DNA of 46,788 bases, taken from the IMG/VR virus record IMGVR_UViG_2690315742_000007; one strand, written 5' to 3'. The first letter of the stretch is position 1, and each line of letters opens with the position of its first letter. The translations under genes and the position numbers were made by a program. Below are positions 42,678 to 45,149 of this stretch, one piece after another. The DNA comes from a virus (Duplodnaviria; Heunggongvirae; Uroviricota; Caudoviricetes). Below the pieces are notes generated by a model, which ran no database searches, was not told the DNA's origin, and worked only from the letters and a program-made list of their open reading frames with translations.

Positions 42678-45149
42678 ATGAGTAAAGTCTTTATTTGCGC
42701 CGCTATTCCTGACGAACTGGCAACAAGGGAAGAAGGCGCTGTGGCTGTAGCCACAGCCATTGAAGCTGGCGACGAACGCCGTGCTCGAGCAAAATTTCAC
42801 TGGCAATTCCTGGAACATTATCCGGCTGCTCAGGACTGCGCTTATAAATTTATTGTCTGCGAGGATAAACCTGGCATACCCCGCCCTGCCCTCGATTCAT
42901 GGGATGCTGAATATATGCAGGAAAACCGCTGGGATGAGGAGTCTGCTTCTTTTGTCCCGGTTGAGACTGAATCCGATCCGATGAACGTCACTTTTGACAA
43001 GCTGGCCCCTGAAGTACAGAACGCTGTCATGGTTAAGTTCGACACATGTGAAAACATCACCGTTGATATGGTTATTAGCGCACAGGAATTGTTGCAGGAA
43101 GACATGGCAACATTCGACGGACATATCGTTGAAGCGTTGATGAAAATGCCAGAAGTTAACGCCATGTATCCGGAGCTTAAGTTGCACGCCATTGGGTGGG
43201 TTAAGCATAAATGTATTCCTGGTGCTAAATGGCCCGAAATTCAGGCAGAGATGCGCATCTGGAAAAAACGTCGCGAAGGTGAACGCAAGGAAACCGGAAA
43301 ATACACGTCTGTTGTTGATCTCGCCCGCGCCAGAGCCAATCAACAGTACACTGAAAATTCAACAGGAAAAATCAGCCCGGTCATTGCTGCCATTCATCGC
43401 GAATACAAGCAGACATGGAAAACACTGGATGACGAACTGGCCTACGCTCTCTGGCCTAGTGATGTGGATGCCGGAAACATTGACGGCAGCATCCATCGCT
43501 GGGCAAAAAAAGAAGTTATCGACAACGACCGCGAAGACTGGAAGCGTATCTCGGCATCAATGCGCAAACAGCCTGATGCCCTTCGCTACGACCGCCAAAC
43601 TATTTTTGGCCTTGTCCGTGAGCGTCCGATCGACATTCACAAAGATCCCGTAGCACTGAACAAATATATCTGCGAATACCTGACGACAAAGGGCGTGTTT
43701 GAGAATGAAGAAACAGACCTGGGCACTGTTGATGTTCTCCAGTCATCAGAAACACAAACTGATGCAGTGGAAACTGAGGTATCTGATATCCCAAAAAATG
43801 AAACCGCGCCGGAAGCTGAACCATCTGTAGAGCGTGAGGGGCCGTTCTATTTCCTCTTCGCAGATAAGGACGGAGAAAAATACGGTCGCGCAAACAAACT
43901 CTCTGGTCTGGATAAGGCACTGGCTGCTGGCGCCACTGAAATCACAAAAGAAGAATATTTTGCCCGAAAAAATGGCACATACACGGGCTTACCGCAAAAT
44001 GTAGATACCGCTGAAGATTCAGAACAACCAGAGCCGATAAAAGTTACCGCTGACGAAGTAAACAAAATTATGCAGGCAGCCAATATCAGCCAGCCTGACG
44101 CCGATAAGTTGCTTGCTGCATCACGTGGTGAATTTGTTGAAGGGATTAGTGACCCGAATGATCCGAAATGGGTTAAGGGGCTCCAGACCCGCGATTCTGT
44201 GAACCAGAACCAGCATGAATCGGAACGGAACTACCAAAAAGCGGAACAAAACAGTCCAAATGCGTTACAAAACGAGCCAGAAACGAAACAGCCTGAACCA
44301 GTAGCGCAACAGGAAGTGGAAAAAGTCTGCACCGCCTGCGGTCAGACCGGCGGCGGCAACTGCCCTGATTGTGGCGCGGTGATGGGCGACGCAACATACC
44401 AAGAAACATTCGATGAAGAGTATCAGGTTGAAGTTCAGGAAGATGATCCGGAGGAAATGGAAGGCGCTGAACATCCACACAAGGAGAACACTGGCGGCAA
44501 TCAGCATCACAATAGCGATAATGAAACTGGCGAGACGGCAGATCACCCAATTAAGGTGAACGGTCATCACGAAATCACATCCACCAGCAGGACGTGTGAC
44601 CATCTAATGATCGACCTTGAAACCATGGGAAAAAATCCTGATGCCCCGATCATCTCAATAGGTGCAATATTTTTCGATCCGCAAACCGGAGATATGGGAC
44701 CGGAATTTAGTAAGACTATCGATCTGGAAACTGCTGGCGGAGTCATTGATCGGGACACCATTAAATGGTGGCTTAAGCAATCACGCGAAGCGCAATCTGC
44801 CATTATGACCGATGAAATCCCGTTAGATGATGCACTGTTACAATTGCGAGAATTTATCGACGAAAACTCCGGTGAATTTTTTGTTCAGGTTTGGGGAAAT
44901 GGAGCCAACTTCGACAACACGATTTTGCGCCGTTCATACGAACGGCAGGGGATCCCCTGCCCGTGGCGTTACTACAACGATCGCGATGTACGCACAATCG
45001 TTGAGCTGGGGAAAGCCATAGACTTCGATGCCAGAACGGCTATTCCATTCGAAGGTGAGCGCCATAATGCACTTGATGACGCCCGTTACCAGGCAAAATA
45101 CGTTTCAGTTATCTGGCAAAAACTGATCCCGAGTCAGGCTGATTCTTAA
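42678..45149 (+). CDS. ydfE: YdfE-like multidomain protein, full length: N-terminal YdfE domain, acidic linker, zinc ribbon, C-terminal DEDDh-type 3'-5' exonuclease-like domain
   Basis: 823 aa from internal ATG ([25 protein letters not shown]...). Zn-ribbon [16 protein letters not shown]; C-terminal motifs DLETMG ... WGNGANFD ... HNALDDA typical of DnaQ-like exonucleases. Confidence 0.6.
   Translation: [823 protein letters not shown]

Follow-up and report, generated by a model that had tools for sequence, protein, structure and literature searches.

Of the described systems, the closest to the gene considered here is RecE of the Rac prophage, in which a large non-catalytic N-terminal part is joined to a C-terminal nuclease of the PD-(D/E)XK type with 5′–3′ polarity; its gene stands late in a repressor-controlled early-left operon, just upstream of xis and int, with the gene for the annealase RecT immediately downstream. 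The full-length form of RecE is used for linear–linear recombination (PMC11611040). The Exo–Beta–Gam (Red) genes of phage lambda stand at an equivalent place in the genome and follow the same logic of an early-left operon. A third point of reference is DexA of the virulent phage T4 (PDB 8KEL/8KEN), a DEDDh exonuclease that acts on DNA in host-DNA scavenging, double-strand-break repair and intron homing (PMC12153337). Here we describe a full-length ydfE-type gene (positions 42678..45149, 823 amino acids (aa)) in a 46,788-nucleotide (nt) stretch of Caudoviricetes DNA (IMG/VR record IMGVR_UViG_2690315742_000007), which is referred to as the window and represents a lambdoid prophage; all genes, protein segments and signals located by window coordinates below are on the plus strand. 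The YdfE-type protein is a three-part mosaic, in which an N-terminus of YdfE type is followed by a middle part of RecE type and by a DEDDh head that takes the place of RecE's 5′–3′ nuclease. Our favoured explanation, in which we place about as much belief as doubt, is that it may be a phage DNA 3′-end-processing enzyme of lytic development, working independently of an annealase on a RecE-like scaffold.

The relationship to RecE is confined to aa 262–627 (43461..44558), which BLASTP aligns with residues 278–592 of Rac RecE (E = 2e-61; approx. 360 aa of homology), and it is this confinement, together with the different first approx. 260 aa and the DEDDh domain at the C-terminus, that leads to the description of the protein as a mosaic of three modules. 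Identity is highest over aa 471–627, at 67–81%, with approx. 85% by BLASTP over the last ~150 aa (from aa 476), and the match can be followed at the DNA level as well, with 78% over nt 1425–1867. The NCBIfam model for ExoVIII (NF007259) scores 281.6 bits, far short of its cutoff of 1269, with aa 246–623 falling on profile positions 271–600 of 877 only. The homology stops where the PD-(D/E)XK nuclease of RecE (Pfam DUF3799, RecE 615–850) starts, which indicates that the nuclease module has been swapped on a scaffold of the RecE type, and a Pfam scan of the window protein detected neither DUF3799 nor PF06630 (Exonuc_VIII), the family that occupies residues 2–178 of RecE. The two proteins thus share the general plan of a large non-catalytic N-terminal part followed by a C-terminal nuclease of ~200–260 aa, and they differ in the module at the N-terminus (YdfE_N here, PF06630 in RecE) and in the class and polarity of the catalytic domain.

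The shared middle part includes most of a long acidic tether (aa 439–635; 43992..44582), which contains 42 aspartate and glutamate versus 13 lysine and arginine residues and is predicted to be disordered, the AlphaFold2 (AF2) model having a predicted local distance difference test score (pLDDT) below 50 everywhere except in a CxxC-x7-CxxC motif at aa 551–566 (44328..44375; C551, C554, C562 and C565; pLDDT ~65–75). In the BLASTP alignment this motif corresponds to CNACGQTGGDNCPDCG of RecE, where it is kept, and both the acidic linker and the nearly identical four-cysteine motif are thus common to the two proteins; we regard the motif as a putative zinc ribbon with predicted metal binding. The segment most conserved with RecE (44088–44558, aa 471–627) is largely disordered in the AF2 model, apart from the ribbon; its conservation may point to a binding motif or just to an exchange in the recent past. 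Upstream of the tether, the model contains a folded N-terminal scaffold (aa 1–345; 42678..43712; pLDDT mostly >90) with sub-domains at aa 1–96, 101–225 and 240–345, and a small beta/alpha domain (aa 385–435; 43830..43982; pLDDT ~85–97), the M1 module, which is common to the scaffold relatives P0130, P0140, P0152 and others. The first 260 aa form the YdfE-specific module, aa 1–256 being 100% identical to YdfE of Escherichia coli K-12. The current Pfam families YdfE_N (PF27430) and YdfE_C (PF27432) are both present in cluster representatives 88–94% identical to the window protein; membership was judged from the precomputed Pfam column of these relatives, the Pfam copy used being one without the two models. 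The PHROG 2082 profile matches the window protein over its full length.

The C-terminal domain (aa 640–820; 44595..45137) is, as judged from profile and structure model, a DEDDh 3′–5′ exonuclease domain that belongs to the Rv2179c/DexA clade, has all of its catalytic residues and is predicted to be active. Pfam PF16473 (Rv2179c-like) matches aa 642–813 along the full length of the model (profile positions 2–177 of 177) with 226.5 bits versus a cutoff of 27 (E = 2.4e-67), far beyond chance. The motifs DLETMG (aa 646–651), WGNGANFD (aa 739–746) and HNALDDA (aa 796–802) provide D646 and E648 (Exo I), D746 (Exo II), and H796 and D801 (Exo III, Hx4D); in a 42-sequence DEDDh alignment, which takes in T4 DexA and 40 stand-alone relatives, the first four of these residues are invariant and D801 is found in 41 sequences. 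The AF2 model of aa 640–820 has the DnaQ fold with pLDDT >95, and its best Foldseek match in PDB is T4 DexA (8KEL; E = 1.8e-10, template modelling (TM) score about 0.65–0.72), followed by RNase T, oligoribonuclease (Orn)/REXO2 and Cap18, with all of the top 50 matches being DEDD-family exonucleases. DexA is likewise the sole PDB sequence match of the window protein (phmmer E = 1.5e-6); a match of the A3 profile to DexA (3e-40) is inflated by DexA being itself a row of A3 and is not used as evidence. Among phage records, the domain was matched by tblastn in 1,614, including the dexA genes of T4-like phages at ~28% identity.

Much of this architecture had been anticipated by a sequence-only reading of the window, which proposed a full-length YdfE of 823 aa, a K-12 counterpart in the Qin prophage cut by an insertion sequence (IS) element, an acidic low-complexity linker, a CxxC…CxxC ribbon and a C-terminal DnaQ-like exonuclease domain with its acidic metal ligands, and which pointed to structure prediction as a check. 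The open reading frame (ORF), its composition, the motif, the profile match and the predicted structure all agree with these proposals, and K-12 MG1655 ydfE (b1577) is indeed a pseudogene by annotation, with IS2E inserted in it. That reading had not recognised the RecE-derived middle of the protein, T4 DexA as its closest characterised relative, or the abundance and existing curation of the family.

The name of the Pfam family and the fold neighbours bring up the possibility that the enzyme is an exonuclease of RNA or oligonucleotides, serving either anti-defence (directed at immune signalling nucleotides or at effectors made of RNA and DNA, for instance retron multicopy single-stranded DNA (msDNA)) or phage RNA processing and mRNA turnover. 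The founding member of the family, Rv2179c of Mycobacterium tuberculosis, is a 3′–5′ exoribonuclease, RNase T, the pGpG-degrading oligoribonuclease/REXO2 and the CBASS-associated Cap18 are all near the domain in structure space, and anti-host genes are frequent in the early-left region of lambdoid phages. We nevertheless think such a role unlikely. Rv2179c is a stand-alone mycobacterial RNase whose substrate preference is not transferable to the window protein, and for those phage members of PF16473 that are closest to the latter, annotation or characterisation points to DNases; among characterised relatives, the DNA exonuclease DexA is the nearest in sequence as well as in structure, and the module is swapped one-for-one with a double-stranded DNA (dsDNA) exonuclease on the same scaffold. 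PHROG and PADLOC scans matched no known anti-defence family. DEDDh enzymes, moreover, require a free 3′-OH, which makes cyclic oligonucleotides poor candidates for the substrate.

All five catalytic residues align with those of DexA, although the window domain is only ~25% identical to it, is without its extra loops, and makes up the last ~180 of the 823 aa of a temperate-phage protein, whereas DexA and the homologous EcD of E. coli stand alone and consist of ~190–227 aa. The residues by which DexA recognises 5-hydroxymethylcytosine (5hmC), W152 and D169, align with Y766 and D782, respectively; the W152 column has Trp in 24 and Tyr in 9 of the 42 aligned sequences, and the D169 column, which lies in a variable, gap-rich loop, has Gly in 26. 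These positions are pertinent to a scenario of HREX-type prophage defence, in which the DEDDh domain would selectively degrade the 5hmC-modified DNA of T-even phages and so shield the lysogen from superinfection. EcD does degrade T4 DNA and protects E. coli (Kang et al. 2025, PMC12153337), the window domain belongs to the DexA clade and retains an aromatic and an acidic residue at the two 5hmC positions, and the neighbouring dicB is known to confer phage resistance (PMC6832061). However, EcD is another protein and stands alone, whereas the domain studied here is attached to a scaffold of RecE type and encoded in an operon that DicA represses in the lysogen, which argues against constitutive expression; the aromatic residue is not Trp, the alignment at D169 falls in a loop where relatives mostly have Gly, and PADLOC returns only a weak generic match to a CRISPR-associated DEDDh model (E = 1.8e-5). 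As the interchange with the recombination nuclease of RecE also points to phage DNA metabolism instead of defence, we see only a small chance that this scenario is correct; if behaviour like that of EcD were nonetheless true of the YdfE-type protein, it would mean that prophages widely carry a defence against T-even phages. That EcD and the window C-terminus might be one and the same could be ruled out, the primers of Kang et al. encoding MIDTET…TIPETYD followed by a stop, and the window sequence LMIDLET…IPSQADS followed by a stop.

The mosaic nature of the protein becomes most apparent when its relatives are compared. A homologue search at the level of 90% clusters was saturated with near-identical E. 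coli proteins, and diversity was therefore taken from a search of 50% representatives, from which, together with Pfam scans and a module table, the combinations of modules were derived. All four pairings of the two N-terminal modules with the two nucleases occur: RecE_N with PD-(D/E)XK in Rac RecE itself, RecE_N with DEDDh in P0123, P0126, P0133, P0134, P0136, P0144, P0147 and P0162, YdfE_N with DEDDh in the window protein, P0001 and P0122, and YdfE_N with PD-(D/E)XK in P0140. P0123 is a natural chimera whose aa 1–277 are 100% identical to RecE and whose C-terminal domain is 99% identical to that of the window protein. Nucleotides 1–1820 of its gene match recE and nucleotides 1387–2418 match the window gene, and the ~430-nt overlap between the two parts is the segment encoding the linker and zinc ribbon, i.e. 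the crossover zone. The comparison suggests that the DEDDh module and the cassette of PD-(D/E)XK nuclease plus RecT are exchangeable right-hand ends of one scaffold, swapped within the shared linker.

Scaffold relatives with other C-termini were also encountered. P0130 (702 aa, L011:5001-7109) has YdfE_N and YdfE_C and then an acidic, helical C-terminus without a recognisable nuclease, and its gene occupies the same slot, after kilR and before xis–int. In P0137, P0152, P0153, P0181 and P0233 (e.g. L014:5001-7337), the YdfE_N and YdfE_C scaffold carries another conserved C-terminal domain of ~280 aa, with the consensus GGTSINAEYMxMRATExFGPxG ... DGEAQKKSLTDAxKKALSxLGFxADVxLGLYD followed by a coiled coil. 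Four of these five domains weakly match the same part of the Pfam model of the Rad52/22 annealase, below threshold (E 0.017–0.12); profile searches against PDB gave no significant match, hhalign gave none to Redbeta or RecT, and the PHROG labels are uninformative, so an identity as a Rad52-type annealase is not supported by these searches. The five proteins may, from their sequences, represent scaffold–annealase fusions.

Stand-alone DEDDh proteins are at least 69 in number among the matches listed. In the e14-like Escherichia phage SKA5 (L006:5998-6571), a stand-alone version of the same domain with ~59% identity is encoded in the early region, with int following a few genes further downstream; in that record it is split by a frameshift into two coding sequences annotated as 'exodeoxyribonuclease VIII'. 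The existence of such proteins is relevant to the idea that the YdfE-type enzyme serves nucleotide salvage, degrading fragments of host DNA to mononucleotides for phage replication with no role in recombination. Scavenging of host DNA was the first role described for DexA (PMC12153337), and the ydfE-type gene is expressed together with early lytic genes (PMC10448788). For salvage alone, however, a RecE-like scaffold of 640 aa would be unnecessary, given that relatives of ~185 aa that stand alone exist in the hundreds. Degradation of the host chromosome is not a known property of temperate lambdoid phages, and we find the salvage idea improbable.

The genomic setting distinguishes the two kinds of right-hand ends. 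As the sequence-only reading supposed, the slot of the window gene is that of recET in Rac and of exo–bet in lambda, an equivalence confirmed by comparison of the loci. For the PD-(D/E)XK version P0140, an overlapping downstream gene of 275 aa matches Pfam RecT (E = 2e-36), in keeping with the arrangement in Rac. The DEDDh versions have xis and int directly downstream of them in seven independent contexts, namely the window and PhiR42_1; vB_EcoS-640R1 and vB_EcoM-606R7, each with a different integrase and attachment site; the Rac-like prophage with P0123; and three divergent relatives at 30–60% identity. Using tblastn with controls that matched, we found no RecT, Redbeta, lambda Exo, Gam or RecE-nuclease match in the 46.8-kb window, and the same queries (two RecT proteins among them) were negative in 80 related IMG/VR loci, again with matching controls. 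A hidden annealase in the window could be ruled out, the small ORFs between dicA and int being DUF1391, YdfB, YdfC, DicB and YdfD. The sequence-only reading was thus right that a partner annealase is missing, and this now extends to the related loci; its notion of a standalone nuclease holds in this respect only, the protein being a RecE-family mosaic with a different nuclease and not an unrelated nuclease. With lambda Red, in turn, the similarity ends at position and operon logic, since there is no sequence relationship and the polarity of the nuclease is opposite.

The favoured reading, 3′-end processing of phage DNA, can be put in the form of the following scheme. Lifting of the repressor would lead to expression of the ydfE-type gene; in K-12 it is the CI-like DicA that represses the operon containing ydfE (PMC10448788). 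The C-terminal domain would hold two Mg2+ ions by D646, E648, D746 and D801 and, with H796 as the general base, strip free 3′ ends of nucleotides. The RecE-like scaffold and the tether would take the nuclease to the same site or partner that is served by the N-terminal region of RecE, giving the same targeting as full-length RecE has in linear–linear recombination. Phage DNA, whether linear or in replication, would have its 3′ ends trimmed or resected there, as happens with T4 DexA in double-strand-break repair and homing, and the resulting 5′ overhangs could then support recombination or end-joining without a dedicated phage annealase, in the manner of the host ExoIII in in vivo cloning. A precedent for the last step is provided by the 3′–5′ exonuclease ExoIII driving annealase-free in vivo joining of linear DNA (PMC6379578).

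Several points weigh against this reading. The 3′–5′ polarity is opposite to that of classical single-strand-annealing recombination. The namesake Rv2179c is an exoribonuclease, and RNase T, Orn, REXO2 and Cap18 act on RNA or short oligonucleotides, so DNA is a substrate that we infer. A structure search with the model of the N-terminal scaffold gave no informative structural neighbour, and delivery to the site of RecE is therefore something we infer from shared sequence only. Since the linker is mostly predicted to be disordered, its high identity with RecE may mirror recent recombination as much as functional constraint. Finally, a literature search found no functional study of a YdfE-type protein, and YdfE has been explicitly called uncharacterised (PMC10448788).

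A broader version of the favoured reading can be put forward tentatively, with a rather low expectation that it is right in full. The N-terminal scaffold of RecE and YdfE together with the acidic zinc-ribbon tether might be a general platform that brings interchangeable DNA-processing heads to one cellular target (for instance DNA ends, the replisome or the single-stranded DNA-binding protein (SSB)), the heads being the 5′–3′ PD-(D/E)XK nuclease with RecT, the 3′–5′ DEDDh nuclease without a partner and, perhaps, an annealase-like domain fused to the scaffold. The DEDDh form, which the majority of E. coli strains possess, would then define an annealase-independent phage pathway of recombination or end-joining with opposite polarity, overlooked because the K-12 copy is broken. 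The swapped nuclease on the RecE scaffold offers in any case a handle on the role of the large, dispensable N-terminal part of RecE, and if annealase-free joining or trimming of DNA ends proves true, the enzyme could be useful for recombineering.

The ydfE-type gene is among the commonest prophage genes of E. coli, as 3,537 of 5,426 complete genomes, about two-thirds, contain at least 80% of its length, often in several copies (per genome, a median of 2 matching places and a maximum of 10), and the 90% cluster of the nearest representative comprises 23,183 member sequences. PGAP names its products 'exonuclease', '3′-5′ exonuclease' or '3′-5′ exoribonuclease domain-containing protein'. The protein and its domain make-up are thus already known, as a ubiquitous, catalogued prophage gene and not a new kind of system, and that it is still uncharacterised is largely because the K-12 copy is broken; what is added here, and constitutes a lead, is the recognition of the RecE-family scaffold with a nuclease of opposite polarity in a consistently annealase-free context. 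The same numbers speak to the suspicion that the gene is a functionless remnant of a decaying prophage or arose as an artefact from the fusion of two genes. In favour of this are the pseudogene of K-12, the occurrence of copies that are fragmented or carry frameshifts, and the loss of the replication genes from the window prophage. Yet the gene is full-length with intact catalytic residues in the E. coli genomes just mentioned and in isolated plaque-forming phages, and the architecture is kept in divergent relatives at 30–60% identity. A remnant is thus highly implausible, being effectively refuted by these conservation data, and an assembly fusion of two genes is ruled out, since isolated phages and thousands of complete genomes contain the identical gene at full length.

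As to the gene itself, the ORF list and the public annotations, which elsewhere name it 'exonuclease / 3′-5′ exonuclease', take the same start, with the reading frame running from ATG 42678 to a stop codon ending at 45149. The sequence GAGG at 42665..42668, 9 nt 5′ of this ATG, is a good Shine–Dalgarno signal, and an in-frame upstream TTG (42642), which would yield a protein of 835 aa, is used by none of the annotations compared. The gene is 100% identical to those in E. coli C and phage PhiR42_1. It is the last gene of its operon, which is the early-left (pL-like) operon of a Qin/lambdoid prophage, the order being dicC/dicA – ydfA – ydfB – ydfC – DicF – dicB – ydfD – ydfE-type gene – xis – int. 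The CI-like repressor controlling the ydfE operon is encoded by dicA (40534..40941; ORF list, annotation of E. coli C and K-12, PMC10448788), and the small RNA DicF is located between ydfC and dicB in the same operon, 5′ of the ydfE-type gene (41983..42034; Rfam RF00039, 76.7 bits). Directly upstream, also in this operon, are dicB (42209-42397; Pfam DicB and annotations) and ydfD (42394-42585; Pfam DUF1482 and annotations). Directly 3′ of the exonuclease gene come the excisionase gene (45222-45473; Pfam DUF1233 and annotations) and, after it, that of a tyrosine integrase (45493-46788; annotations).

In E. coli C and a number of further strains, the Qin locus, which adjoins rspB, is 100% identical to positions 42000-46788 of the window, and the isolated temperate phage PhiR42_1 is collinear with the whole window at ~99.8%. 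Relative to this phage, the window prophage is missing 2,254 bp at 39811|39812 (PhiR42_1 8042-10295), a stretch carrying the 3′ end of a cII/YdaT-like gene and the genes for DNA replication protein O, LygF and an S-adenosylmethionine (SAM) methyltransferase. The window prophage is probably without autonomous replication, while its structural genes look complete. The first ~1.27 kb of the window have no counterpart in positions 1-27000 of the PhiR42_1 record and may be host flank. Positions 1273-2301 match the first ~1 kb of that record in reverse orientation, a part that in PhiR42_1 lies beyond int, from which it follows that the window covers the prophage from end to end.

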